Source of the DNA: a virus
Taxonomy: Duplodnaviria > Heunggongvirae > Uroviricota > Caudoviricetes
Virus record (IMG/VR): IMGVR_UViG_3300006033_000017
Length of the DNA: 52,239 nt
Strand: one strand, 5' to 3'
This document shows positions 1,117 to 44,878 of the stretch, one piece after another (the stretch's first letter is position 1; each line of letters opens with the position of its first letter). The translations under genes were made by a program, and so were the position numbers. Below the pieces are notes generated by a model. It made no database searches and was not told where the DNA came from. It was given only the letters and a program-made list of their open reading frames with translations.

Positions 1117-1130
1117 TTCTCCGGTTTTTA

Positions 1131-1215
1131 CGGAAGTAGAAGGGGTCGAACCTTCACCAGTGTAACCTGGGCCTAGACTTAGCAGGTCTGCCGCTTACCA
1201 TTCGCGCATACTTCC
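1131..1215 (-). tRNA. trnS: tRNA-Ser(GCT)
   Basis: Acceptor GGAAGTA/TACTTCC, anticodon loop CTGCTAA, long variable arm (CCAG/CTGG), T-arm GAAGG-TTCGACC-CCTTC, discriminator G; CCA not encoded. Confidence 0.95.
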
Positions 1216-1244
1216 AAGGTACTTGGTTCCCCAGGCATACCTTT

Positions 1245-1274
1245 ATTATAGCACACCTGGGGACCGTTTGTCAA
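1245..1274 (-). promoter_or_regulatory. sigma70-type promoter for tRNA-Ser operon, -10 flanked by 8-bp inverted repeat (1228-1235/1256-1263)
   Basis: TTGACA-18-TATAAT with TG extension, then AAAGGT-A. Confidence 0.85.
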
Positions 1275-1936: not shown

Positions 1937-1949
1937 TATAATGAGAGTA
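1937..1949 (+). promoter_or_regulatory. -10 element and probable +1 for glycosyltransferase gene; no consensus -35
   Basis: TATAAT-GAGAGT-A; ATG lies 3 nt after predicted +1. Confidence 0.6.
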
Positions 1950-1951
1950 CT

Positions 1952-2785
1952 ATGGCAACACAAATTCCCAAGATCTTCCATTTTATGTGCCTTCATGGCG
2001 ATTTGCCTAAATGGGCGACCAAATACATGCAAGGATGGCAGGATCTGCACCCTGATTGGACAATAAACCTCTGGACAATGGATAATTTACCAGAATTATA
2101 CAACAAAACTCTATTTGATCAGGCAATTAATCCTGCTCATAAGTCACAAATCCTACGTTATGACTTAGTTTACCAATTTGGTGGTATATATCTAGATTGG
2201 GATATGGAATGTAGAAAGAATATTGAACCATTATTGGACGATATTACTGCTTTCGGAGCCTTTTACAATGACAAATTCGAATCACGGAAGTTCCCTAAGG
2301 GGTATGACGAGCCATATATCATTGACCATTACGAGATTTGTATCTTCGGCGGCGTCCCAGGACACCGTTTCTATGAGGAATTAGTGACAAAACAGCAAGA
2401 TTGGTACGACCAACACCCTGAATGGGATCCGATTTGGAACCATATTCCACTAACAGCAGGGTTCTACGCGGCACAGAAACTGTGCGTGATGTACCCTGAG
2501 GCTAAGAAAGTAACTGGTAAAGAGGTTAAACCCATTAAGCTAGACGATTTTACCCTATTTCCACCCCATTATTTCATCCCCGTTGGTCCCTATGACTATG
2601 GATATGCCGATAAAATCGACACCAAGAAAGCCTATGCGGTCCATAAGATGAAAGCGACATGGCAGCATCTACCCGGAGCAGGGGAATACGGCCTAAAAGG
2701 AATTGAACACCTTACTCCTCTTTATGAGATAAAGAAGCGGCGGCAACCTGCTGAGTCAGGAAGATCTGTTCCCCAGATTCCTTAG
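1952..2785 (+). CDS. glycosyltransferase family 32 (DXD, OCH1/Gly_transf_sug-like)
   Basis: IPKIFHF...W..LHPDW...W; LRYDLVYQFGGIYLDWDMEC (DxD). Confidence 0.9.
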   Translation: MATQIPKIFHFMCLHGDLPKWATKYMQGWQDLHPDWTINLWTMDNLPELYNKTLFDQAINPAHKSQILRYDLVYQFGGIYLDWDMECRKNIEPLLDDITAFGAFYNDKFESRKFPKGYDEPYIIDHYEICIFGGVPGHRFYEELVTKQQDWYDQHPEWDPIWNHIPLTAGFYAAQKLCVMYPEAKKVTGKEVKPIKLDDFTLFPPHYFIPVGPYDYGYADKIDTKKAYAVHKMKATWQHLPGAGEYGLKGIEHLTPLYEIKKRRQPAESGRSVPQIP

Positions 2786-4167: not shown

Positions 4168-4575
4168 TTATATCTCTATGCGTTCTTCGTCTTCCTCATC
4201 TACTGGATCGTCACTCAGGATCCTCTTCGTGAATGCCAATAGCTCCAAGGGGTTAAAGGGCTTGGTCAGGTAGCAGTACACACCGCTCTGCCAGCCTTTT
4301 AACACGTCCGCGTCACCCGCCTTGGCGGTGAGCATGATGACGGGCAGGTCCTTCGTATTAGGATTCATCTGGAGCCGCTTGAGCACCTCAATCCCGCTCA
4401 GCTTAGGCATCATCCAATCCAATACTAGCATATCTGGATGGTGTGTGTCAATAGCGGATAGCGCTTCTACTCCATCAGCAGCAGTCACTACATCGTAGCC
4501 AACACGCTTCAATGTAATTTCAATCAATCGTCTGATTTGTTTCTCGTCATCTACTACCAATATCTTCTTAGCCAT
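4168..4575 (-). CDS. stand-alone response regulator receiver (CheY-like)
   Basis: KILVVDDE, LVLDWMMP (phospho-Asp), IMLTAK, YLTKPF; probable start MAKK at 4575. Confidence 0.95.
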   Translation of the reverse strand: MAKKILVVDDEKQIRRLIEITLKRVGYDVVTAADGVEALSAIDTHHPDMLVLDWMMPKLSGIEVLKRLQMNPNTKDLPVIMLTAKAGDADVLKGWQSGVYCYLTKPFNPLELLAFTKRILSDDPVDEEDEERIEI

Positions 4576-8648: not shown

Positions 8649-8817
8649 GTGGGGCAGGAGTTGTCGCCTGCTTCACATGAGCCCTGGTTCTTTCCTCCTT
8701 TCTATCAGGGCTCCGCGAACAACCAGAAGGTAGACTATGTACGGGCCTCTCTCTAAGGCCCCCCACCTTGGCCCGTACAACCCCAATCCCCTAGTCTCCC
8801 TTCTGGTTGCGCCCGCG
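8649..8817 (+). ncRNA. candidate structured small RNA with anti-SD loop
   Basis: Stems 8649-58/8667-76, 8679-87/8705-13, 8720-30/8799-809, 8732-37/8792-97, 8738-47/8770-79; three G-U pairs valid only on the plus strand; begins at predicted +1. Confidence 0.65.
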
Positions 8818-8886: not shown

Positions 8887-9179
8887 ATGGAACAGGGCAC
8901 GTCACCCAGAACCTGGCGAGACAACGCCTAATCACCGGGTTTGATAGTATTTCCCGTAAAATATCCCATCCCCTTTCTTTCTCTTTGTCATGGGTTAATA
9001 TACTAAAGAGCGTTTAAACCAGAGTTCGATAAAACATACTGGCAGTAAAATGGTAGTAATCCGCTCAGTGATTCTACTCGGCCCGCAAAGTCGTTAGCTT
9101 AGACGGAGCAACTTGCAAGTAGACAAACGGGGTGAACCGAAACCTGTACAGATTAGGTTCGCCCCGCTACTCCCCTTTT
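8887..9179 (+). ncRNA. candidate second small RNA with leaderless 14-codon ORF (8887-8931)
   Basis: Follows P2; ends in 11-bp hairpin 9128-38/9156-66 then CCCCTTTT; no long ORF. Confidence 0.45.
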
Positions 9180-9428
9180 ACAAAATTGATGCCAAACGGA
9201 TCGCCAATCCCAAAAGCATCATAGTTGATAGTAATGTAACAACTATACAAACATTGCCCCGATCTTACTTTAGGGTGACGTTAGTAAGCGCTGATATTGT
9301 AGTGTTGGCGATATAACTGCTACATCTCCTTATCCAAGAGTTGGATAACGTGCATTGTGGACCGACCCAACGTCATTGGGGAAACTCAGGCAGTACATGT
9401 CTTTAAGCTCGGCAAGCTACAGTACAAC

Positions 9429-9467
9429 GGAAACGGGCAGCCACCTGATCAGTGGCTGCCCGTTTCC
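9429..9467. terminator. perfect 16-bp inverted repeat, probable terminator or processing hairpin
   Basis: GGAAACGGGCAGCCAC-ctgatca-GTGGCTGCCCGTTTCC, just 3' of minus ORF 9497-9826. Confidence 0.65.
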
Positions 9468-9496
9468 ATTTACACCAATGCTACATGCAGATCGTG

Positions 9497-10095: not shown

Positions 10096-10647
10096 TCAGT
10101 CTGTGATGAAAAACTTAAGATCCTTCCAGCCAGTAGGATTAGTGAGTTCCTCATACTGGTCAATCTTAAAGAATTGAGGAGGGGTGATCTTGAACAGAGG
10201 GTGAATCTCCTCCGACCTACTCTTCATAAACCTCACCACGGCTTCATGGAACCTCTGTTCCGCCGCCGCTGCATCAACACGTTCCTGCAAATAGATGTTA
10301 GTCAACGCTCGACTGTATCGGGTAAGGTCTTCCTTGATGATTCGAACTGCCTGCTCAGCCTCAAAGATCAAAAAGTTCCGCTTAGCAACCTCAAGATACC
10401 AAGCATCCTCCAGCATCGCCAAAGTAGCTCTAGTCTCTTTTAGCTTCGCTTGACCCTCCTTAAGTAGATACTCCAAACTCTTCTTCAGTTCATGAGTATT
10501 CAGTACGTTACTAGTAGGCAGGTTATCCAATACCCAATCCTGTCCAAAGAATCGCCCGCGCGGCGTAGCAGCAGAACCATGCTTAACCAAATACGCAGCA
10601 ACCAACTGATCCTTGTTAATGTCACTCACTGTAGTTCTCCTTTGCAC
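10096..10647 (-). CDS. hypothetical helical protein
   Basis: 183 aa open frame. Confidence 0.7.
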   Translation of the reverse strand: MQRRTTVSDINKDQLVAAYLVKHGSAATPRGRFFGQDWVLDNLPTSNVLNTHELKKSLEYLLKEGQAKLKETRATLAMLEDAWYLEVAKRNFLIFEAEQAVRIIKEDLTRYSRALTNIYLQERVDAAAAEQRFHEAVVRFMKSRSEEIHPLFKITPPQFFKIDQYEELTNPTGWKDLKFFITD

Positions 10648-11065
10648 CCATCGTCGCCCGCATACTGTTAATCAACCACTTCTCAGAAACACATCGTTGC
10701 TCACCAATCACAACGGTCTGATTGTAATCAAACTCCGCAGGCGTAATTCCACTATTACCTTCCAGGATTACTTCAACTGCACGATCAAATATCGCCAACC
10801 GTATAGCTTCAGGAACCATTGACGCTCGAATCATATTGTAAACATCACCGATCAACCCATCAATAGTATCCATGACTTCAGGGTCTTGAGGCATACGAAC
10901 AACTACCTCCCGCAATACCTGCGTCTCATTACGCAACTGGTATACCGCAAACTCTGAACTCCTCATATCACCCTGTACGCAGTCCAGGATATATACATAT
11001 GCCTCTTCAGCTTCTTCGTCCTGGAACTCAATCACAACATTACCATTCCGTAGTACCTTCAACAT
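10622..11065 (-). CDS. hypothetical protein
   Basis: 147 aa open frame. Confidence 0.7.
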   Translation of the reverse strand: MLKVLRNGNVVIEFQDEEAEEAYVYILDCVQGDMRSSEFAVYQLRNETQVLREVVVRMPQDPEVMDTIDGLIGDVYNMIRASMVPEAIRLAIFDRAVEVILEGNSGITPAEFDYNQTVVIGEQRCVSEKWLINSMRATMGAKENYSE

Positions 11066-11129
11066 GATGTTTCCTTTTGCTTTCTAGAAACTCCCACCGG
11101 GAATTTAGACTTTTACTTGACTTATCCGA

Positions 11130-11501
11130 TTAGTACTCACTGGGTAGATAAATCACCATCACCGGCTTTCCACTACAAACCCCTGCGTCACAATACAAGA
11201 CCAACTCTTCAAACGGACTATCAGTGTACTCTACCTCTTGCTTGTACAAAATCCGCCCAGGTCGATCATCCATCCCCTCTACTACACACCCTCTGCCAAT
11301 TCGCTTCATTACCCACACCTGAAACTCTTCACCCTTCAACTCAGACTGTACACTAGCAATGATGTCCAGCAACCAAGCATGTTCATTGTCCCGCAAATAC
11401 TGCCCACCATCACTACACACCACCCCTGGCATTACCGCGTAATACTGATCAGTTCCAGTAAACCCGTTCAGTACATGCTGCATCTCCTCTAGCTTACTCA
11501 T
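11130..11501 (-). CDS. DUF6876-like protein
   Basis: FTGTDQYY...WLLDIIAS.Q...EFQVW...Q.VEYTD.P...LPSEY pattern. Confidence 0.75.
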   Translation of the reverse strand: MSKLEEMQHVLNGFTGTDQYYAVMPGVVCSDGGQYLRDNEHAWLLDIIASVQSELKGEEFQVWVMKRIGRGCVVEGMDDRPGRILYKQEVEYTDSPFEELVLYCDAGVCSGKPVMVIYLPSEY

Positions 11502-11522: not shown

Positions 11523-12194
11523 TCACATGCACATCGCACCGTTCTTAACTTTGCCACCAAACTTCACCGGCATAGTCTCACAGTATTCACCATTAGCAGC
11601 ACACCACGGACAGTAACTCGCAGGCTTATACATCTTCTCCCGCGCCTCTGCCATATTCTTTACCGTGATCCCCCACGGCATCTTCAAGTAGCTCTCATTC
11701 CCTTGATCTACTTCATCCGCTCGATACTCCATGTACAAATCATCTAGATTCCAGTGCGCCCTACACACTACCGCAATCCCTGTAGGTGACAACGTAGGCG
11801 ATGTGTACTCTTGATCTCGACAAGGAATCAAATCATTGTTGATAACCAATGCCTCTGTACACACACCACCCGTCTTATCCCAGAGAACACTATCTCGACA
11901 AGTCTTGACTTCACTAAGATCCTCAAACCCAATCCAGTACAACCAACTAGTCCTGATGATCTCACCTTCACTATTAAGGATTGGCTTAGTCCAGATACCT
12001 AGCCTCGCTAGTTCTTCATCACTCAATCCCCACTTGTCGTAACTGTCACTCATCAACCCACCATTAAGTACATGGCGCAGTCGATACTCTTCTTCTACTG
12101 CTGCCCACATCTTCTCTTTACGCGATACAGTACCATGACTGTACCGCCACATCTTTAGTTCATAACGAGTCGCTACGTAGTCGTTTCCAGCCAT
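11523..12194 (-). CDS. hypothetical protein
   Basis: 223 aa directly downstream of promoter 12215-12244. Confidence 0.75.
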   Translation of the reverse strand: MAGNDYVATRYELKMWRYSHGTVSRKEKMWAAVEEEYRLRHVLNGGLMSDSYDKWGLSDEELARLGIWTKPILNSEGEIIRTSWLYWIGFEDLSEVKTCRDSVLWDKTGGVCTEALVINNDLIPCRDQEYTSPTLSPTGIAVVCRAHWNLDDLYMEYRADEVDQGNESYLKMPWGITVKNMAEAREKMYKPASYCPWCAANGEYCETMPVKFGGKVKNGAMCM

Positions 12195-12214
12195 GGTCGG
12201 ATCCCTCTATCCTT

Positions 12215-12244
12215 ATGGTACCACACCCCCAGCCCGCCTGTCAA
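12215..12244 (-). promoter_or_regulatory. sigma70-type promoter
   Basis: TTGACA-18-TACCAT, GTGTGG before -10, then AAGGAT-A. Confidence 0.8.
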
Positions 12245-12890
12245 GCCCTGAGAGGCCACGAACCGGCAGGTTCCCTTATGGGTATATCGAATCCGGCAGG
12301 ATTATCTATAGAAACCCCTGTATTGGCCCGTATAGTTACTATTATCTGTAATAATTGAAGAGTAACTGTTTCTTTATTGGAAGTTTATTGAGATGTTTAT
12401 TTGGGGCGTAGATTTCGACGCTAAACCAATCCACCCTATTACTTACCAAAGTTATTTTGTGCCTACGTCGCTCAGTTACTAGCGTTGCTAAGGAATTAAC
12501 TTCGCAAATTAAGATCCTACATGCTAAAGTAAACAATGGGTCAATTTGATGTAAACTTCGTTTGGGACTAAATGGGGAAATGTGTGAACAAATGGGGATG
12601 GTGGTCAAAACAGGAACAGAAAGGGGAATATGTGATATGAGATGAAGTCTATTAGTAATCAACGAGTCACGATACCAAGTATATAAATGGATCACAAGGG
12701 CTTAAAAGACTTAAAAAGGGAGATACTCCAATGAGGACAACTACTAAGACAACTACTAAGACAACTAGTGATAATCAATCTCGTACTACACCAGTAGTTA
12801 CTAATCAAGATACTAATCAAGATACTAGTAACTCTATTCGTAATCGACCTCATGCTATTCGTAATCAAGTAATAGCAATAAATGGGAAGA
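12245..12890. other. candidate replication origin (GC-skew inversion, AT-rich intergenic DNA, short repeats)
   Basis: Plus strand C-rich to the left, G-rich to the right; about 480 bp without a credible ORF; TTTATT x3 near 12371-12404; CCGGCAGG x2. Confidence 0.5.
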
Positions 12891-13780
12891 ACTGGGAGGT
12901 TATAGGTAAGAGGGAAGTAGAGCTTAATGGAGTTGTATACAAGAAGCTAGTTAGTAAGAGAGTAAAAGAAGGAGGGGATTATCAGAGGAGGATTGATATA
13001 CAGGAGATGATGGGGAAGTGTTTTGTTTCGGGCGGCGATTCCAGGATTAAGTTGAAGGGTAGAGATAGTACAGAGTTCAATAAGATTTGGGAAGTCGTGA
13101 ATAGAGAATCAGTAACGTTATCAGGTAAGGGGTCGTGTGAGTTCATATACAAGACAGTGACTGATTTGGTTAGGGAATCTAAGGAATCTAAGGATAAAGT
13201 GTTTAGGATTTTAGAGATAGGTAGATTTGGGGGCGGGACGACGAAGTTAATGAGTAGGATCGCAGGGGTCACAGAGGTAGTGAGCATAGACAAGGGGACT
13301 AGCAGAGAAGAGTTAGAGTCATGGGCTAAGGGTTCATGGGTGAGTGAAGAAGTATCTAGATATTTCTTGGGGGTCATGGAAAAGCTAGAGTCATATTTGC
13401 CTGGGTATACCAGTGTAGAGGCAGTGGCTCAGGTATGTATCAATGAGTCTAATGTGACTTTGATTACAGGGGATAGTGCTGAGATTGATTACAGTTCACT
13501 GGGGGAATTTGATTTTGTATTTATAGATGGGGATCATAGTGAGGCGATGGCTTTACTAGATATGGAGAACTGTTGGGGGATTTTGAGGCCGGGCGGGGTT
13601 ATGATTTTGGATGATTACAATTTATGGCTCAAGGATACGAGATCGGTGAATGGGGTAGATTTGGCTACTGGCACGTTTCTAAGGGCGCACTGTAGCGACG
13701 GGGATGGTGGAGACGGTACGGTATGGAGTTACGGGGGCGTCGATGCGTGGAACGCTATGGTGTGGATTAGAAAGGGGTAG
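12731..13780 (+). CDS. class I SAM-dependent methyltransferase (Methyltransf_24-like) with repetitive N-terminal extension
   Basis: ILEIGRFGGGTT (motif I), FDFVFIDGDHS, LRPGGVMILDDY; SD AAGGGAG. Confidence 0.85.
   Translation: MRTTTKTTTKTTSDNQSRTTPVVTNQDTNQDTSNSIRNRPHAIRNQVIAINGKNWEVIGKREVELNGVVYKKLVSKRVKEGGDYQRRIDIQEMMGKCFVSGGDSRIKLKGRDSTEFNKIWEVVNRESVTLSGKGSCEFIYKTVTDLVRESKESKDKVFRILEIGRFGGGTTKLMSRIAGVTEVVSIDKGTSREELESWAKGSWVSEEVSRYFLGVMEKLESYLPGYTSVEAVAQVCINESNVTLITGDSAEIDYSSLGEFDFVFIDGDHSEAMALLDMENCWGILRPGGVMILDDYNLWLKDTRSVNGVDLATGTFLRAHCSDGDGGDGTVWSYGGVDAWNAMVWIRKG
12736..12866. repeat. three sets of 12-bp direct repeats
   Basis: GACAACTACTAA x2 plus partial (12736-67), TACTAATCAAGA x2 (12799-822), CTATTCGTAATC x2 (12834-45, 12855-66). 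Confidence 0.9.
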
Positions 13781-22991: not shown

Positions 22992-23034
22992 TGGTTTCCT
23001 CAGGGAACGCGGCCCGAGCCGCCCCTATAACTAT

Positions 23035-23064
23035 ATGATACCACACCACACCCGCCGTTGTCAA
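23035..23064 (-). promoter_or_regulatory. sigma70-type promoter
   Basis: TTGACA-18-TATCAT, GTGTGG before -10. Confidence 0.8.
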
Positions 23065-33742: not shown

Positions 33743-33780
33743 GGTTCCTCTAGCGGGGCATCCCCCGTTGCTCTACTCTC

Positions 33781-33809
33781 ATTATAGCATACGGGGTCGC
33801 GGATGTCAA
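33781..33809 (-). promoter_or_regulatory. consensus sigma70 promoter, -10 flanked by inverted repeat CCCCGT/ACGGGG (33763-68/33791-96)
   Basis: TTGACA-17-TATAAT, TG extension, then GAGAGT-A. Confidence 0.9.
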
Positions 33810-36219: not shown

Positions 36220-36275
36220 GGCCTAGCTCCCGATCTTTCCCATTGCTTTCATTGTACCACAACGGAGCGCGTTTG

Positions 36276-36635
36276 TCAAGAGATATTTTTGACCGCGAAT
36301 CCTTCACTATCGGGTGAAACAAAATTCATGATATCTAGCGATGTTGCGTTTCTTAGGATTTGCTTATTGGCTTGTGAGATATTGGGAACCAAGACATATT
36401 CCAGTAATGCTTTGAAGCGGGGATCTTCGATCTTATAGGTCGCACCGTAGAGTATGAAGTGGATGACTTCTTCTACAGCGACCTTTCTTTCTAGTGGGCC
36501 GGTATGGGGGCATTTACCGCTGAATACTTTGGCATAGTATTCCCCAGCCTCAAGTGCTGTGAGACAAGCCAGAAAGACTTGCTTCAAAGGATCTTCTTTG
36601 TTCTTTTTATTAGACTTCGGAGTTATTGCTGCCAT
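36276..36635 (-). CDS. hypothetical protein directly downstream of MTase
   Basis: 119 aa, overlaps MTase stop. Confidence 0.65.
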   Translation of the reverse strand: MAAITPKSNKKNKEDPLKQVFLACLTALEAGEYYAKVFSGKCPHTGPLERKVAVEEVIHFILYGATYKIEDPRFKALLEYVLVPNISQANKQILRNATSLDIMNFVSPDSEGFAVKNIS

Positions 36636-37948
36636 ACTACGTCCTCAATTAGCTGGATTTCTTCAGGGGTGAATCCAAAATGCTTATAGATCTTGTTATT
36701 ATCCCAGCTTTGTGACCAATCTAACCTTGGGATAATTGTAAAAGTAGATGGCCTAATGTCTTGTGTAATCTTCGAGAGGGTCATAAGATACTTGAAGAAT
36801 CTCGTCTCGAAATAACTAACGAAGTTCTTGGCTTCTTCTTCTGTATCGAAACAGAAACAAATATAGCTCTTACTACAGACTTGACCGGGTGCCGCAAGGA
36901 TGTGGTACGATGTATAATCGCCTCCTACGCCGTCGGCAGCGCGCAGCAGCACCTTCCACCTATCGATATCCTGTTGGTTGCGTAAGATTGCGCGTGGCAC
37001 ATACTTCATACCACCCTTAGTTAAGGAGACGAAGCAATCAACATCGTCAGGTCCTTTAGTATCCCGGAAGTGTTCGCTATTGGTCTGAAGACCGAAATGA
37101 GATTGGGCGCAACAATCATCGGCTAGGCTTTGCATTCTCTTTGCCTTCCTGTAGATACTAAGACCTGTAACGTTTTTAACAATTAGGATGTCGGGGTGGG
37201 CCTTAACGTCAAACACGTCATCTAGGAAATTAAGATGTGTTGTGCCCTCGTACCCCTTTTGGAGAATGAAGTAGGAGAGCCCACCTTTTATGTCAGTGTT
37301 AGCGAAGAGTTTATTATCTTTGTTATGCCATAGTGCTTTGAGCCCATACTGTTGGGTCATACGATAGCAGAACTCGTGACTATTACTCTTGGCGAACCAA
37401 CGACTAGGAGTAATGAAGAGTAGGAGTCCTTCATCGACTAAGAGTTGGTATCCAAGATCGACAAAGGCAGGGTATAGATCGGAAGAGTACGGGTTGCCTG
37501 GGATTTTCTCGTTGTTGTATGGCGGATTACCCACGACTACATCGAATTTAGTGTGGTTCCAATAGTCGAAGTTTAGTGAATTAGCGCAAGCTATATTGAG
37601 GTTGTATTTGTTCTCGGGGTCGAGCTTGAACATACACAGATATGCGTTCTTGCGCTGTAATTCGACCCCGAATAGCATATTTTCTAAGATATGGCGTTCT
37701 TTATCTTCTATCTTGAGAGATGCCATTAGTCTTAACTTGACCTGATACAAGAAGTTCCCCGACCCGCAAGCGGGGTCAATCCACTTCAGGTCGGGGTTAC
37801 TCCAGGTTTCGGGTGGGAGTTTATCCAGCATCTCATTGACTAAGGCTGCTGGTGTAAACACTTCGCCGAATATCTTCTTGTATTGGTCTTCTGTTATCAT
37901 TCTTTGTGTTTTTGTTCTTCCCTTATTCTGAGTACAGGAAAGTTCCAC
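36623..37948 (-). CDS. N6-adenine DNA methyltransferase, Eco57I-type (gamma), with TRD
   Basis: FGEVFTP, IDPACGSGNFL (motif I), FDVVVGNPPY (motif IV); true start may be MITED at 37900. Confidence 0.95.
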   Translation of the reverse strand: MELSCTQNKGRTKTQRMITEDQYKKIFGEVFTPAALVNEMLDKLPPETWSNPDLKWIDPACGSGNFLYQVKLRLMASLKIEDKERHILENMLFGVELQRKNAYLCMFKLDPENKYNLNIACANSLNFDYWNHTKFDVVVGNPPYNNEKIPGNPYSSDLYPAFVDLGYQLLVDEGLLLFITPSRWFAKSNSHEFCYRMTQQYGLKALWHNKDNKLFANTDIKGGLSYFILQKGYEGTTHLNFLDDVFDVKAHPDILIVKNVTGLSIYRKAKRMQSLADDCCAQSHFGLQTNSEHFRDTKGPDDVDCFVSLTKGGMKYVPRAILRNQQDIDRWKVLLRAADGVGGDYTSYHILAAPGQVCSKSYICFCFDTEEEAKNFVSYFETRFFKYLMTLSKITQDIRPSTFTIIPRLDWSQSWDNNKIYKHFGFTPEEIQLIEDVVWQQ

Positions 37949-37956
37949 ATATCAGA

Positions 37957-40900
37957 TTAAGACTGTCTTGTAACAAACTCTGTCCACCAATTCTTGCGGA
38001 ATTCGGCAATAATGCGGCAATTGATGTTCAACTCAAGAATCGAACACATTTCCATCAAAGAACGGAATGCTGAGGAATCAAATGCCTGCTTAATGTAAGG
38101 TAGATTTTCGGGGGTATCAACAATTGCATATGAGAACTGTGTCAGCCCATATTCCCCTTCATCATCGATAAAGCTTCCGACTGAAATGATACGACCGTTA
38201 CTCCAGACCATTTTGGGAACACCAAAATGCCCTTTATCATTTCGACTAGAAAAGTGCAGCTTGGGAATGTCTCCCTTCGGCACCGTATAGATACAGGGGA
38301 AAAGATATTCATGGTCTTTTTCTTTGGAGACATATTCTCGTTGCGTGTGATATGTTGAATCACTCAGAATACATACCTTGTCGTCTCCTTCTTTAGCTAC
38401 AAGCGAAAAGATTTGAGAGAAACAACCATTAGGAATGAATGGGAGTCCAAACAAATCGAAAGATACAAGACAGCCATCTTGACCATCGATCAGCGTTTCA
38501 AAACCATTGGTGCGGGGCGTATTCTTGCAACAATACCAGTCATATCTTGTTTCGGCACCGAAGGTTTCTATGCCATCTTTTTCATTGTGGATGGACAGAA
38601 ACATAAGTTGTTTTTCAAGCAAAAGTTGTCGAACACTAGCATATTCAGGATCACTATATTTGCTAATAACGTTTCGCCAACCAGAAGGATGGACAAAGAC
38701 CAAAAAACCATTAGGGCTAAGGAAAGAAAATGCCTTAATGACAAACTTTGCCCACAGCGCATGACCACGGCCTTTTGCGCCCTTTTCGCGGGCTTCCTGA
38801 TACGGCGGGTTCCCCACAACAACATCAAACTTCATGCCACCCCAGTAGCCAAACACTAGAGAATCGGCAATCTCAAGGTGCATGTCGAATTCGCCCTCAG
38901 GATCCAAGAACATGAGCGCAATCAATACGTTCTTAGGCTGAAGTTCGACGCCATAGATCATATTCTCTAGGATGTGCTTGCGCCGCGCCGCAGAATCGGG
39001 CATGACTGAAGCCAAACCATCCATGAGTCGGTCATAGACCCGCATCAAGAAGTTTCCCGACCCCATAGCAGGATCGATCCACTTCAAATCAGGGTTAGAC
39101 CAAAGCTCAACAGGCAACTTGTCAAGCATTTCATCGACAAGAGCAATCGGGGTAAACACTTCACCAAACTGCTTCTTCGCAACAGTGCTTGAAAGGCATG
39201 ACTTAGCCATATCAATAATCTCCGGTTCCCTATTGGCAATTGCAAGCAACCAACTCTCGTAGTTGAGTTGCATGTAGTTCATCAGTTCTTTATTAGCAGC
39301 ACTATATCTTGGGAAATTCGCATCTAGTAGCGTAACAACATGTCGCCACAGGAAATGCATCTCCCCACCAAGATTAACATTCTGCTCGAAGATTGCCTGA
39401 ACTTCAGGAGTGACCTTATCCCAGGTAAAATCCTCGCATCGAGAATGAAGATACACAAACAGTAGATTAGCCAAGAAGTGATCAGGGTAGATCTCTTCGA
39501 ACTTCTCGGGAATCTCATGGTGCCTCAACATCCGAGCCACCAAGTTCTCCGCTACTACCCGCTTTCGGCGCAGCCGACTAACCTGATCTTGGTGTAGAAT
39601 GTCAACGATATCCTCGTAAGTGTTAATGAACTCATCAAGGCCCGAATGCCCAGACCGCAGTGAGTCATCAGGAGGATTAATCGGTTCAAGCTCCTCAGGC
39701 TCGAAGAGGCCACGATTAGTATCGATAAAGACACTAGTTCTAGATTGGAAACCATACTCGGTTCGCAGCTTAGCAACTAGATCCTTAGTCTTCTCGATTG
39801 CGTCTTGAGCCCCAGCGTACAGATCGGGGAGAATGATCCAGGCGCGCGGCTTGATCCAAGGATATTGATCCTCTACCGAGATATCGCCCGCATAAAGGCG
39901 TCCACGATCAACACCTAGCAACCGACAAGCCCGACCAATGTTCTGGTAAAGCTTGACATCACAAAGGTTCCTAAACAACATGATGCCTGTAATACCAGGA
40001 ACATCAATGCCCTCGCCAATCATGTCAATGTGAAAGACGATAGCTTGCTCAGGTGCCGTCAAAGCCTTAAGTCTATCAAGCATAGTCTGCTTCTTCACCG
40101 AAGAAACAGGCGCAGGCCAATAGTCATCATCACACCTTACACCATAGTCGGTAGACAAGGCGAAGAAATGGACGTTAGGGAATTGCCGACGGAACCTAGC
40201 ATACGCCTTTGTCTGGAACAGTGCCTTGAGTTCTTCTTGGCCCCGCAGCACTGACAACATCTTGGCACCAATGGCGTCCGGCTCAACCGAATCTTCTTTT
40301 ACCCGGTTGTTATGAGCCAGGAAAGCATTGACGATAGAGGAGAACATTGCCTCATAATCATTATCAAGCTTTTCCTTGTCATAAGTTTGAGTCTGATCGG
40401 GCTGAATGATGTGAATCCAAGGCGGCAACATCTCGCCAGCCTCAATCATCTCACGAGGGGATACCTCGTAAACGGTCGAGCCAAAGATATCGACATTGTT
40501 CATTCCGAAAGAATGCTCGGAACGAGTTTCCTTCTCAGTTGCCGTGAAGAACAACTGCTGGCATGGATTCAAGCTCGGAATTCGAGAGAACTCTTCAGCT
40601 ACGAGGTTGTGTGCTTCATCATGGAAGACAACATCGGGAACAATCCCCGAAGAAGCCAACTTAGTAGCGGAATGATAGGTACTCACAATAACCAACGGTA
40701 CGCCCGCTGCCTTTGCGAGTTGGTGCTTCTTCCGTACATCTTCGGTAGAAGTCGAGGAAAGAATTTTGTTGTAAATACCGCCCTTCAGCCTAATCGCATT
40801 CACATACTCTTCTTCGTCAAAACTACCGGAGTTGTAGTTGACGTATACAGCATTGTGAATACCACAGCTAATCAGATACTTGAAGACTTCCTCAAGGATC

Positions 40901-41706
40901 TGCCAGCAGAGTAGGATACGAGAGGTGTTGATCTGAATAACAGGTGAACCCTTAGCCCGAATCACTTCATAAGCGATTTCTGATTGGATATAGGTCTTGC
41001 CTGTTCCTGTTGGGCACGTAATCTTGCCCCGCGAATCTTCCGGGAAGTCTTTCCAAGCACTAACTGCGGCGTTCTGATGCTTTCTTAGCACAACACGAGG
41101 AAGAGCGTCAGGATCAGCCGCAATTTGATCTTCCTTAATCGTCTCGAAGAAACGTTCCCACCACTCAGGCCGCTTGTCCAACAATGCCTTTAGATGTTCT
41201 CGACCAAGTACACGGACCTTGTTAAGCAACATCTCTTCAAGAGTGTAGTAATGGACACCCTTGCCTGTCGTGATAAGAAGCATGTTCTTCGTGCTATCAA
41301 GCGGCACGCCATACTTCATAAAAGAGGCAAGCGGGAAGTTGGTCACATGATCTTGGTCAGCCGTAAGAACATAGGTCGGGTCACTACGGTACTTAACCTG
41401 TACTGTAGCGGGATTACCATCTTCACCTAGACCGAAACCATCGACGCCAGTATCTCCTACCTTAACAGGCTGATAGTCGTAGATGCCAATGCGATTATCC
41501 ATTCCCATATTCAGGAGAAGATATTCGACCAAAAGCTCCAGACTATGCCCCTTAAAGTCTTCAGGGGGAATGGTAGCCTTATATTTCGCGGACAGCCTAT
41601 CCACCTGTTGACAAAAGCGATCAACGGTTACAATTAACCCACTATTGTCGTGGCTGAATTCATCGACATCAATCTTGTCCTTGAAGGAGTGCTTAAGTCC
41701 CATCAT
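37957..41706 (-). CDS. Type ISP-like restriction-modification protein: Mrr-like nuclease + SF2 helicase + N6-adenine MTase + TRD
   Basis: GVDG...VQVKY (PD-QxK), PTGTGKT, DEAH, DMIGEGID, QNIGRACR, FGEVFTP, DPAMGSGNF, NPPY at 38800-38811. Confidence 0.85.
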   Translation of the reverse strand: MMGLKHSFKDKIDVDEFSHDNSGLIVTVDRFCQQVDRLSAKYKATIPPEDFKGHSLELLVEYLLLNMGMDNRIGIYDYQPVKVGDTGVDGFGLGEDGNPATVQVKYRSDPTYVLTADQDHVTNFPLASFMKYGVPLDSTKNMLLITTGKGVHYYTLEEMLLNKVRVLGREHLKALLDKRPEWWERFFETIKEDQIAADPDALPRVVLRKHQNAAVSAWKDFPEDSRGKITCPTGTGKTYIQSEIAYEVIRAKGSPVIQINTSRILLCWQILEEVFKYLISCGIHNAVYVNYNSGSFDEEEYVNAIRLKGGIYNKILSSTSTEDVRKKHQLAKAAGVPLVIVSTYHSATKLASSGIVPDVVFHDEAHNLVAEEFSRIPSLNPCQQLFFTATEKETRSEHSFGMNNVDIFGSTVYEVSPREMIEAGEMLPPWIHIIQPDQTQTYDKEKLDNDYEAMFSSIVNAFLAHNNRVKEDSVEPDAIGAKMLSVLRGQEELKALFQTKAYARFRRQFPNVHFFALSTDYGVRCDDDYWPAPVSSVKKQTMLDRLKALTAPEQAIVFHIDMIGEGIDVPGITGIMLFRNLCDVKLYQNIGRACRLLGVDRGRLYAGDISVEDQYPWIKPRAWIILPDLYAGAQDAIEKTKDLVAKLRTEYGFQSRTSVFIDTNRGLFEPEELEPINPPDDSLRSGHSGLDEFINTYEDIVDILHQDQVSRLRRKRVVAENLVARMLRHHEIPEKFEEIYPDHFLANLLFVYLHSRCEDFTWDKVTPEVQAIFEQNVNLGGEMHFLWRHVVTLLDANFPRYSAANKELMNYMQLNYESWLLAIANREPEIIDMAKSCLSSTVAKKQFGEVFTPIALVDEMLDKLPVELWSNPDLKWIDPAMGSGNFLMRVYDRLMDGLASVMPDSAARRKHILENMIYGVELQPKNVLIALMFLDPEGEFDMHLEIADSLVFGYWGGMKFDVVVGNPPYQEAREKGAKGRGHALWAKFVIKAFSFLSPNGFLVFVHPSGWRNVISKYSDPEYASVRQLLLEKQLMFLSIHNEKDGIETFGAETRYDWYCCKNTPRTNGFETLIDGQDGCLVSFDLFGLPFIPNGCFSQIFSLVAKEGDDKVCILSDSTYHTQREYVSKEKDHEYLFPCIYTVPKGDIPKLHFSSRNDKGHFGVPKMVWSNGRIISVGSFIDDEGEYGLTQFSYAIVDTPENLPYIKQAFDSSAFRSLMEMCSILELNINCRIIAEFRKNWWTEFVTRQS

Positions 41707-42049
41707 GTCCCCCTAGTTCTTGCGATCTCGACAAAGCAGTTTGTGGGCTCGCGAAATAGATTAGATCAATCTTGCGAAACTGTGTTGGATCGAACGTCAT
41801 GCCCTTTGGCTTCTTAATGTATGGTAGTCGCCCCTTATATCTCTTATTGCCGTTACCATACATCCAATTTGTCAGCATCCAAATGAGCACTTCTTCTTCA
41901 GGAGAGTTTCTGTCAGTACCATTTGCTGCGCAATCTTTCTTGTCGATCTCCCATACTGTGACATCCCCTGCCTCCATCTTAGCAAGAGCTTGGCTGTAAA
42001 TCGTCATCAGTTGTGCTTGAGCTTTATCCAATTGTGAAGAATCGTCCAT
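41693..42049 (-). CDS. hypothetical protein leading the RM operon
   Basis: 118 aa; overlaps RM gene start; follows promoter 42082-42110. Confidence 0.7.
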   Translation of the reverse strand: MDDSSQLDKAQAQLMTIYSQALAKMEAGDVTVWEIDKKDCAANGTDRNSPEEEVLIWMLTNWMYGNGNKRYKGRLPYIKKPKGMTFDPTQFRKIDLIYFASPQTALSRSQELGGHDGT

Positions 42050-42081
42050 CCGTGCAAGCTCCGTTCCGCCCTACTACCCTT

Positions 42082-42110
42082 ATTATAGCACGGGCGGCGT
42101 CGGAAGTCAA
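42082..42110 (-). promoter_or_regulatory. sigma70 promoter of RM operon, -10 flanked by inverted repeat CCGCCC/GGGCGG (42066-71/42092-97)
   Basis: TTGACT-17-TATAAT, TG extension, then AAGGGT-A. Confidence 0.85.
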
Positions 42111-42184
42111 GCGATATATTGGGGCGATATATGATTGCTCGATTAACTTGATATGTAGCAAAACACAATCCTTATTGAAACATT

Positions 42185-43326: not shown

Positions 43327-43826
43327 TTATCTCCTGCGGCGTAATTCTGTAGATAAGCCACTAGCTTCTCTTCCATATTATCCATTGTCCATCCCTCAAA
43401 AACAACAGCAGTGACGAGCGCAGAAAAGAACGTTAGGGCCGCACCGATAGCAGAGATCCATCGGAGATTTACCAAAGTAGTCTCCCCTTGATGATACCTA
43501 CCGGCTAGTTGGTATTCAGTAAAATCGCCCGTAAAGTATACGGCTAGTGGCCCGCCACCGAAAAAGTATATAGCTCGTGGATTACCAAACCCGACCGAAC
43601 CAATCAAGCGTTTTTGATCCTCGTGGGTTACTAGGATTCTTAAGCGCCTATTGTTATTCACTTCGTAACATTGCGGAGAACATTGATCGTGTGTGATCTC
43701 AACGCAAACATCTTCTGAGATCTTAACAGTGGCGCAGTATCGATCAATCCACATACCATCAGGTAGTGCAATGATATCTGCATCAGGGGGATCGCGACGA
43801 GTATAGTTCAGTTCCATCACTAACAA
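43323..43826 (-). CDS. hypothetical protein with C-terminal TM
   Basis: WISAIGAALTFFSALVTAVVF. Confidence 0.65.
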   Translation of the reverse strand: MLVMELNYTRRDPPDADIIALPDGMWIDRYCATVKISEDVCVEITHDQCSPQCYEVNNNRRLRILVTHEDQKRLIGSVGFGNPRAIYFFGGGPLAVYFTGDFTEYQLAGRYHQGETTLVNLRWISAIGAALTFFSALVTAVVFEGWTMDNMEEKLVAYLQNYAAGDK

Positions 43827-44092
43827 CTTTCGAGCTTAAAGCAAATCACGTTGCATTCGCTGATTGCCTTTTCATGGCTTTCAACAAAGTAGTGAATGGG
43901 GTTGGTCTTACCCACCACAAAGAAGTCGATAGACCAACGGTAATCTTGTGTCGTTGGTGGCTTCAGTGGCGAGGAAGCAGCCGAAATATGCTGCACAACC
44001 TTGAAATGCGTAACATTGTCCAGAACAACAGCTTGTTGTACGGGGTTAGTGTGGTGCGCCTCAAGCGGCGACGAGAATTGAAAAACGCGCAT
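43820..44092 (-). CDS. hypothetical protein
   Basis: 90 aa, first gene after promoter 44146-44175. Confidence 0.65.
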   Translation of the reverse strand: MRVFQFSSPLEAHHTNPVQQAVVLDNVTHFKVVQHISAASSPLKPPTTQDYRWSIDFFVVGKTNPIHYFVESHEKAISECNVICFKLESC

Positions 44093-44145
44093 TTAAGTAT
44101 CCTTTAGCATTTGGATGCGAGAGAGCCACGGCTCCCTCTACCCTT

Positions 44146-44175
44146 ATGGTAGCACAGGAGCCGTGGCGATGTCAA
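44146..44175 (-). promoter_or_regulatory. sigma70 promoter, -10 flanked by perfect 11-bp inverted repeat (44125-35/44157-67)
   Basis: TTGACA-18-TACCAT, TG extension, then AAGGGT-A. Confidence 0.85.
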
Positions 44176-44197: not shown

Positions 44198-44857
44198 TTA
44201 CTCTCCCCATATCTCAACTTCAGTGTAGCGATTTAATGGATCGCTATATGTACTCCCCTTACTATAACATCGAATATATCTACAAGAACTACATTTGCCG
44301 TCAACTATTTTACCTAGATTTGTCTCCCAATATTCACTATTGGTTCCAACTCCAAGTTTAGAGCTATTGTCTTTGTCGTTATTGAAGAGGGTTATGACAC
44401 CACTTGAAAATTCAGGATCATTACTGACTTGAACTATAACATCGTGAAAGATTACGGGTTCCAGATGGAAGTGCCAAATAACAATACTGTATATGTTTTT
44501 GCTTTCTCCTAGATCAATTTGAATCCATTGGGTGCGCGGCCTCAATTCAACCGAGGTATCCTCATAGGCTTCTTTTTGTCCATCAGTTACTAACTTCAAA
44601 GATTGGGAATAAACACTACTACTGGCAGTTACAATCTTATTCAATGCCAACTGTTTTGTTGATTGGGGCACTTTAGGTAGAGCAGCCCTATATTGTGCTA
44701 TAGTGGGAACATCTTCAACATCAGCGAATGCAGGATCTTCCTCATCTACCATTGGTGTGCCAGCGAAAGCTGCACGCGGCAACACTAGTGGTAATGGCAC
44801 TAATTCTTCTGCTAAAACTAAAGACGATATCACTAGACATATAAGTAACGATTTCAT
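44198..44857 (-). CDS. secreted discoidin / F5-8 type C domain protein
   Basis: signal peptide MKSLLICLVISSLVLA; LALNKIVTASS, QWIQIDLG, IVIWH, RYIRCYS, YTEVEIWG. Confidence 0.8.
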   Translation of the reverse strand: MKSLLICLVISSLVLAEELVPLPLVLPRAAFAGTPMVDEEDPAFADVEDVPTIAQYRAALPKVPQSTKQLALNKIVTASSSVYSQSLKLVTDGQKEAYEDTSVELRPRTQWIQIDLGESKNIYSIVIWHFHLEPVIFHDVIVQVSNDPEFSSGVITLFNNDKDNSSKLGVGTNSEYWETNLGKIVDGKCSSCRYIRCYSKGSTYSDPLNRYTEVEIWGE

Positions 44858-44878
44858 TTCCCCCTCCATATTTAGCTA

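Follow-up and report, generated by a model that had tools for sequence, protein, structure and literature searches.

The window that we analyzed, a stretch of 52,239 nucleotides, comes from a large freshwater phage that has not been cultured. A 157,149-nt ENA contig matches it at 100% identity, 99% of the window's words are found in one freshwater run, and contigs from three DNA runs show a single differing letter relative to the window. The window is an accessory region: most of its genes are small and have no known role, and nearly all are on the minus strand. It includes two tRNAs, a helicase-methyltransferase operon, and genes for NAD and nucleotide salvage. An Rfam search gave tRNA matches only. 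The GC skew flips sign sharply at about 12000-13000, next to a plus-strand methyltransferase-like gene.

A profile scan of the window identified 11 strong and 2 weaker sigma70 promoters. All 13 share a TTGACA box, an extended -10, and a purine-rich discriminator. The same consensus is present in 22 unrelated bacterial genomes, so the phage promoter is an ordinary host-type promoter. Four of these promoters, all on the minus strand, have an inverted repeat around the -10 box. They are near-consensus sigma70 promoters, with 10-12 of 12 consensus matches and 17-18-nt spacers. Their parts, along with one promoter of the GTGTGG type, are as follows.

44170-44175, minus strand: -35 hexamer TTGACA of promoter 44175 (profile scan; invariant in fragment L005 of a related strain)
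44156-44167, minus strand: 5' arm of hairpin A, in the 18-nt spacer (perfect 11-bp arm at 44157-44167; 44156 adds a U.G pair)
44146-44151, minus strand: -10 hexamer TACCAT, preceded by TGC (extended -10; profile scan)
44139, minus strand: predicted +1 (A), the 7th nt after the -10, from sigma70 geometry
44125-44136, minus strand: 3' arm of hairpin A, at +4 to +15 of the promoter's own transcript (fold)
44119-44138, minus strand: hairpin B, an 8-bp stem with a 4-nt loop at the 5' end of promoter-started RNA (fold)
44100-44105, minus strand: Shine-Dalgarno sequence AAAGGA of the 90-aa ORF at 43820-44092, outside hairpins A and B
44198-44869, minus strand: gene upstream of promoter 44175, with an F5/8 type C domain; its stop is 30 nt before hairpin A
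42060-42110, minus strand: promoter 42110, with -35 at 42105-42110 and -10 at 42082-42087 (profile scan)
42060-42104, minus strand: enclosing hairpin of promoter 42110, 16 bp, -22.7 kcal/mol as RNA (Watson-Crick core 42092-42097/42066-42071)
33758-33809, minus strand: promoter 33809, with -35 at 33804-33809 and -10 at 33781-33786 (profile scan)
33758-33800, minus strand: enclosing hairpin of promoter 33809, 13 bp, -16.9 kcal/mol (Watson-Crick core 33791-33796/33763-33768)
33754-33767, minus strand: alternative leader hairpin of promoter 33809, 5 bp with a 4-nt loop, in promoter-started RNA (fold)
1225-1274, minus strand: promoter 1274, with -35 at 1269-1274 and -10 at 1245-1250 (profile scan)
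1225-1265, minus strand: enclosing hairpin of promoter 1274, 16 bp with 4 G.U pairs, -27.2 kcal/mol (Watson-Crick core 1256-1263/1228-1235)
1130-1216, minus strand: tRNA-Ser(GCT), 8 nt after the 1274 hairpin; the related strain has a different tRNA-Ser(GCT) sequence
22998-23064, minus strand: GTGTGG-type promoter 23064, with a 5' leader hairpin (fold)

Promoter 42110 drives a 118-aa ORF and the helicase-methyltransferase operon. Leader hairpins without an enclosing hairpin are found at promoters 26568, 23064, 8613, and 8287. Behind promoter 8613, at 8649-8710 (plus strand), is a two-hairpin structured RNA with a CCUCC-containing loop; its first stem is retained in the related strain, with a change from G.U to G-C. 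The consensus promoter 8852 is followed by an ORF-poor stretch (8887-9470, plus strand) that has no Rfam match and that contains a piece resembling a tRNA T-arm (about 9150-9175) and a 19-bp inverted repeat (9426-9470). At 1937-1952 (plus strand), a consensus -10 with the phage discriminator, but no clear -35, would place +1 three nt before the start codon of a glycosyltransferase, giving a nearly leaderless mRNA. A 41-nt imperfect direct repeat is present twice at 1828-1919, in the gap between divergent genes, with palindromic pieces in each copy.

The four inverted repeats were proposed in the initial annotation, and they are indeed present at the positions, and with the arms and loops, that it gave. 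The perfect repeats are 11 bp with a 21-nt loop at 44175, 8 bp with a 20-nt loop at 1274, 6 bp with a 20-nt loop at 42110, and 6 bp with a 22-nt loop at 33809. All four promoters have TGC just before the -10, and the arms are placed as described: one arm has its inner edge 4-5 nt before the -10, and the second begins at the 10th to 13th nt downstream of it. We also agree that the arm sequences are unrelated, that it is therefore the structure rather than the sequence that is shared, and that a single repressor operator is unlikely. The 20-22-nt loops are partly paired once G.U is allowed: RNA folding of the four loci gives stems of 13-17 bp and apical loops of 5-13 nt. The predicted stems are 12+5 bp at 44175 (-33.0 kcal/mol), 13+3 bp at 1274, 4+6+6 bp at 42110, and 3+6+4 bp at 33809. 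The inner helix is built from consensus bases and may be partly incidental; at 44175, it is a 5-bp stem between the 5' part of the -10 hexamer and 44138-44142.

At all four loci, and in all three of their orthologs from the related strain, folding is more stable for the sense strand than for the antisense strand. This bias is significant at 1274, where the sense strand is favored by 10.2 kcal/mol (p = 0.002). Also, all four hairpins come after a co-directional gene, at 15 nt (33809), 15 nt (1274), 30 nt (44175), or 80 nt (42110) from its stop codon. None of the promoters without a co-directional gene directly upstream (12244, 8613, 8607, and 8852) has an enclosing hairpin; promoter 48179 does have a co-directional gene upstream, yet has no hairpin. 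We rejected a classical U-tract terminator on either strand; no U-tract lies behind any of the four hairpins. Intrinsic terminators with a U-tract are not above the shuffle level anywhere in the window (11 vs. 15, 8 vs. 11, and 13 vs. 13), a hint that the host uses different termination signals.

To estimate how often such repeats arise by chance, we paired the spacer of each of the 13 promoters with the leaders of the others, and we shuffled all variable positions with the consensus fixed. Watson-Crick repeats of at least 6 bp with a loop of 19-23 nt, a geometry chosen after seeing the data, occur in 4 of the 13 native promoters and in 5 of 156 swapped pairs (permutation p = 0.0013). The same geometry was not found in any of 22 unrelated bacterial promoters with the same consensus. 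Taken singly, promoters 44175 and 1274 beat all 1000 shuffles (p ≤ 0.001), while the other two gave p = 0.025 (42110; 0.09 with a longer leader window) and p = 0.09 (33809). Without 44175 and 1274, the signal for the set is not significant (p = 0.14-0.46). Thus, the set as a whole is above chance in the comparison to swapped pairs, but only 44175 and 1274 are clearly significant alone against shuffles. We consider the evidence for 44175 and 1274 to be strong, for 42110 marginal, and for 33809 weak.

Matches of 6 bp arise easily because the spacers are C-rich and the leaders are G-rich: spacers that end in GC are 41% C, and leaders are 41% G. Of the 156 swapped pairs, 11 reach at least 6 bp, and one reaches 8 bp. 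Base composition also accounts for most of the proposed split into two promoter classes, a TGC class with the repeat and a GTGTGG class without it. We rejected this split: the repeat is present in 4 of 8 promoters with xGC and in 0 of 5 with xGG, which is not significant (Fisher p = 0.10), and spacers that end in GG, with 44% G, are unable to pair with the G-rich leaders. In the related strain's version of promoter 23064, which is of the GTGTGG type, there is an 11-bp pairing between the spacer and the 3' arm of the leader, further out (p = 0.01). In the window's own copy of 23064, pairing between spacer and leader does not stand out.

Two other candidates were set aside. A "promoter" at 4451 with a 6-bp repeat (4422-4451, minus strand) lies inside a response-regulator gene and is kept in the related strain; it is probably a coding coincidence. 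Promoter 36279 was considered as a fifth case, but its fold is at the shuffle level (p = 0.5). Its spacer (36261-36268) is complementary over 8 bp to the leader at 42058-42065, which is the best match of the 156 swapped pairs. This match joins the promoters at the end and the start of the helicase-methyltransferase operon, and it could be chance or a trace of a circular or recombined origin.

We sought relatives by protein and by pattern in viral and genome contig collections and found none there; protein searches led to one related strain only. It is 87-92% identical to the window and is represented by fragments L005, L009, L012, L013, L015, and L016. This strain keeps orthologs of three of the four hairpin promoters (44175, 33809, and 1274).

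At 44175, L005 differs at four positions of the promoter and of the leader segment that forms the hairpin. Three of these changes are at adjacent positions of stem A, and all three give G.U pairs (one C>T change in the 5' arm gives U.G, and two changes in the 3' arm give G.U). The RNA fold is unchanged (-24.0 kcal/mol), while the fold of each DNA strand drops from -17.6 to about -10 kcal/mol. Three changes lie in stem B, and all of them keep the pairing (-12.8 vs. -13.2 kcal/mol). Two of the three changes in stem A are shared with stem B, and because these two G.U changes are explained by hairpin B alone, the independent support for hairpin A is thin. That four of four transitions would keep pairing has a chance of about 1 in 16. 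The initial annotation had suggested looking for compensatory changes: we found pair-keeping changes to G.U at 44175, but no double-sided change in any of the four stems, as compared to this one strain. In the leader hairpins of promoters 8613 and 8287, the changes are only in the loops or are swaps between G.U and G-C. The pair-keeping changes in these two hairpins and at 44175 suggest that RNA structure around the promoters is under selection.

The ortholog of 1274, in L013, has an invariant spacer, and its stem persists with bulges (-21.6 kcal/mol, p = 0.03). The hairpin was retained despite replacement of the adjacent tRNA by a dissimilar tRNA-Ser(GCT). In L013, the replacement tRNA is followed by about 680 bp of extra DNA (10543-11309 for both). 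The ortholog of 33809, in L009, has a weaker RNA fold that contains G.U pairs (-14.4 kcal/mol) and no DNA hairpin beyond the shuffle level (-2.7/-3.6). The alternative leader hairpin of 33809 is lost in L009, where the downstream gene is missing.

The fourth promoter, 42110, is absent from the corresponding site of the related strain (L015), along with its operon. L015 diverges at 42180, and the missing segment, which includes the promoter, is 36276-42180 (minus strand). Its absence there makes the helicase-methyltransferase operon resemble a recent insertion whose borders are promoters 42110 and 36279. The F5/8 type C gene upstream of 44175 is also absent from the related strain, with the boundary 8 nt upstream of the -35. 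Overall, a boundary of gene gain, loss, or replacement adjoins all four hairpin promoters (at 8, 70, about 0-20, and 7 nt from their -35 or +1), as compared to none of the seven other orthologous promoters. One promoter that is found only in the related strain also adjoins a gene boundary, and many boundaries are away from promoters, so we view the association as suggestive only.

On balance, we think that the repeats probably act as RNA stem-loops on read-through transcripts, with a role at the 3' end of the upstream message. Because nearly all of the genes are co-directional, transcripts from upstream would run through the next promoter. In such RNA, the spacer would fold together with the ~15 nt that follow +1 into a hairpin of 13-17 bp, located 15-80 nt past the upstream stop codon. 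Its most likely role is to mark the upstream message's 3' end, either as an attenuator or terminator without a U-tract, or as a barrier to exonucleases after cleavage. At 1274, tRNA-Ser begins 8 nt beyond the hairpin, and RNase P cleavage there would put the hairpin at the end of the mRNA. RNA that starts at the promoter should be unaffected by the enclosing hairpin because it lacks the 5' arm. At 44175 and 33809, the same bases are predicted to form a different small hairpin at the 5' end of promoter-started RNA; hairpins A and B at 44175 are mutually exclusive in the predicted folds. The structure would thus be overlaid on the sequence-free spacer and the early leader, ending one unit and starting the next within ~50 nt. 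An RNA hairpin fits the strand bias, the tolerance of wobble pairs, and the position of the repeats.

The initial annotation had instead read the repeats as a supercoiling-driven cruciform or a single-strand DNA hairpin, similar to N4 promoters. We consider it highly improbable that such a structure, or pairing between nascent RNA and the non-template spacer, switches these sigma70 promoters. It is true that the perfect 11-bp repeat at 44175 folds equally well on both DNA strands (-17.6 kcal/mol), that the loop holds the region melted by RNA polymerase, and that a one-strand or RNA:DNA version would tolerate G.T or G.U pairs. But the orthologs lose DNA stability (to -10, -7, and -3 kcal/mol), and the ortholog of 44175 carries three adjacent G.T pairs in mid-stem (A.C on the other strand), which are harmless in RNA and disruptive in a cruciform; this argues against a DNA cruciform. 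Energetics also weigh against it: a cruciform would melt 40-45 bp and regain two hairpins, for a net cost of 30-50 kcal/mol before any junction penalty (nearest-neighbor sums), while the relief from supercoiling is 15-30 kcal/mol at sigma of -0.03 to -0.06, by a rough estimate that uses a textbook formula. The spacer of a promoter must remain double-stranded for sigma to contact both hexamers, which is another reason to disfavor a DNA switch. As for N4, its promoters share a sequence from -17 to +1 and a short stem with a small loop, are used by a phage enzyme of ~3,500 amino acids, and need gyrase and SSB (PMC4496689). The inverted repeats here are likewise centered near -11, but their arms are unrelated, 20-22 nt apart, wobble-tolerant, and set on ordinary -35/-10 promoters. 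We saw no conserved sequence, short stem, or RNA polymerase of the N4 type in the window, whose longest ORF is 1340 aa (in a genome of ~157 kb). Our results give no support to a new, supercoiling-gated class of sigma70 promoter. A site like an integron attC was rejected as well: there is no shared core, and the boundaries are at different positions.

Several other readings compete with a 3'-end role for the RNA hairpin. Sites of the RNase III type might cut read-through RNA near +1 to +5 and give a promoter-like 5' end downstream. The stems of 16-17 bp with internal loops or bulges at 44175, 42110, and 1274, the lack of a U-tract, and a 3x1 internal loop at 44175 that puts the single 3'-side base at +3 all agree with this idea, and T7 pairs promoters with RNase III sites (R3.8/phi3.8 and R6.5/phi6.5; PMC6938266). 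As in these T7 pairs, an internal promoter among co-directional genes is combined with a long RNA hairpin. In contrast to the phage promoters here, T7 transcription starts upstream of the cleavage site and uses a phage polymerase, and RNase III cleavage in our phage is hypothetical. We consider this reading unlikely in its own right, but it is compatible with the 3'-end role rather than exclusive of it. Another possibility is that the hairpin buries the ribosome-binding site of read-through RNA and thereby restricts translation to promoter-made RNA, as with T4 genes e, soc, 49, and I-TevI. These have inhibitory hairpins that hide the SD or AUG, with the promoter in the 5' strand of the helix (PMC3014915), so that only read-through RNA folds the hairpin, and the same logic would apply here. 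The outer stem at 42110 touches the SD, and in L009 the 3' arm holds the SD and raises its opening cost from 4.0 to 10.9 kcal/mol, although this effect is not specific to the order of the spacer (p = 0.19). The T4 promoters are late promoters, while those here are of the sigma70 type, and the SD is not hidden at any of the three protein-coding loci: the opening energy does not rise at 44175 (1.2 vs. 1.5), 42110 (4.6 vs. 3.9), or 33809 (3.4 vs. 3.2 kcal/mol). The hairpin at 1274 leads to a tRNA. We therefore rejected general occlusion of the SD, which was seen only in L009, and we find this reading very unlikely. A by-product without selected function, from composition-driven pairing plus template switching at quasi-palindromes that perfected some repeats, strikes us as rather improbable. 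The swapped pairs that reach 6 or 8 bp, and the placement of 33809 and 42110 within or near the shuffle range, are what it would lead one to expect; transcription-linked mutation at quasi-palindromes is known (PMC3820800). On the other hand, two loci beat every shuffle, the geometry is fixed at four loci and absent from the 22 controls, and the folds are kept in the related strain. A more elaborate scheme, which we regard as possible but doubtful, is a switch that senses the origin of the transcript: read-through RNA would form a long processing or attenuating hairpin, promoter-started RNA would form a protective 5' hairpin, both from the same 20 nt of leader, and both would be selected. Still less likely, pairing of the nascent leader with the non-template strand of the spacer might modulate re-initiation at a sigma70 promoter.

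A 3'-end role on read-through transcripts would place these elements close to the PeSL (promoter-early stem-loop) cassettes of Arbiol et al. (2010), whose stem-loops are mostly in the spacer or overlap the -10 (PMC2839356). PeSL stem-loops contain G-T pairs, and one that was tested cut read-through like rrnB T1 (PMC2839356). Comeau et al. (2014) extended PeSLs to further T4-like phages (PMC4122927); the phages with PeSLs include RB49/phi1, PST/T4, and nt-1/KVP40 (PMC2839356, PMC4122927). When we ran phi1 through the same promoter scan, we recovered its PeSLs, which were mostly compact spacer hairpins, with one straddling the -10.

Like PeSLs, the elements in our phage combine a near-consensus sigma70 -35/-10 promoter with a GC-rich stem-loop that contains G-T pairs and overlaps the -10 (the RNA folds that enclose the -10 are -17 to -33 kcal/mol). 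The intergenic gap from the upstream stop to the next SD or start is short at 44175, 42110, and 33809, while 1274 heads a tRNA. The setting is an ORFan-rich hyperplastic region, with adjoining gene gains and losses between close relatives. In contrast, most phi1 stems are compact hairpins of a G-run and a C-run inside the spacer, while the stems here have greater length and unrelated sequences, extend to about +15, and can be in competition with another hairpin at the 5' end. The AT-rich tract of PeSLs is weaker than in phi1: AT content is 50-83% in the 12 nt ahead of the -35, compared with 55% for the genome. Instead of the ~100-bp conserved sequence or recombination site of PeSLs, only promoter cores of 27-42 nt are shared (64-89% identity), and the boundaries vary in position. 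PeSLs are found in T4-like phages, while the window lacks T4 core genes; it does have a T4 30.3-like domain and a match of 27-30% to cyanomyovirus helicase/methylase regions.

From this comparison, we predict that the present elements work like PeSLs, with attenuation of upstream transcripts. If so, then promoter/stem-loop cassettes are also present in an uncultured freshwater phage that looks unrelated, the free positions of a sigma70 promoter can encode regulatory RNA structure, and such promoters should not be treated as pure DNA parts. The sole fresh element is the conserved pair of putative mutually exclusive hairpins at 44175; if this two-fold switch is real, it would be a compact way to tie the fate of a transcript to its start point. 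Most likely, the feature as a whole is a longer-stemmed variant of the PeSL cassettes and not a new DNA switch.
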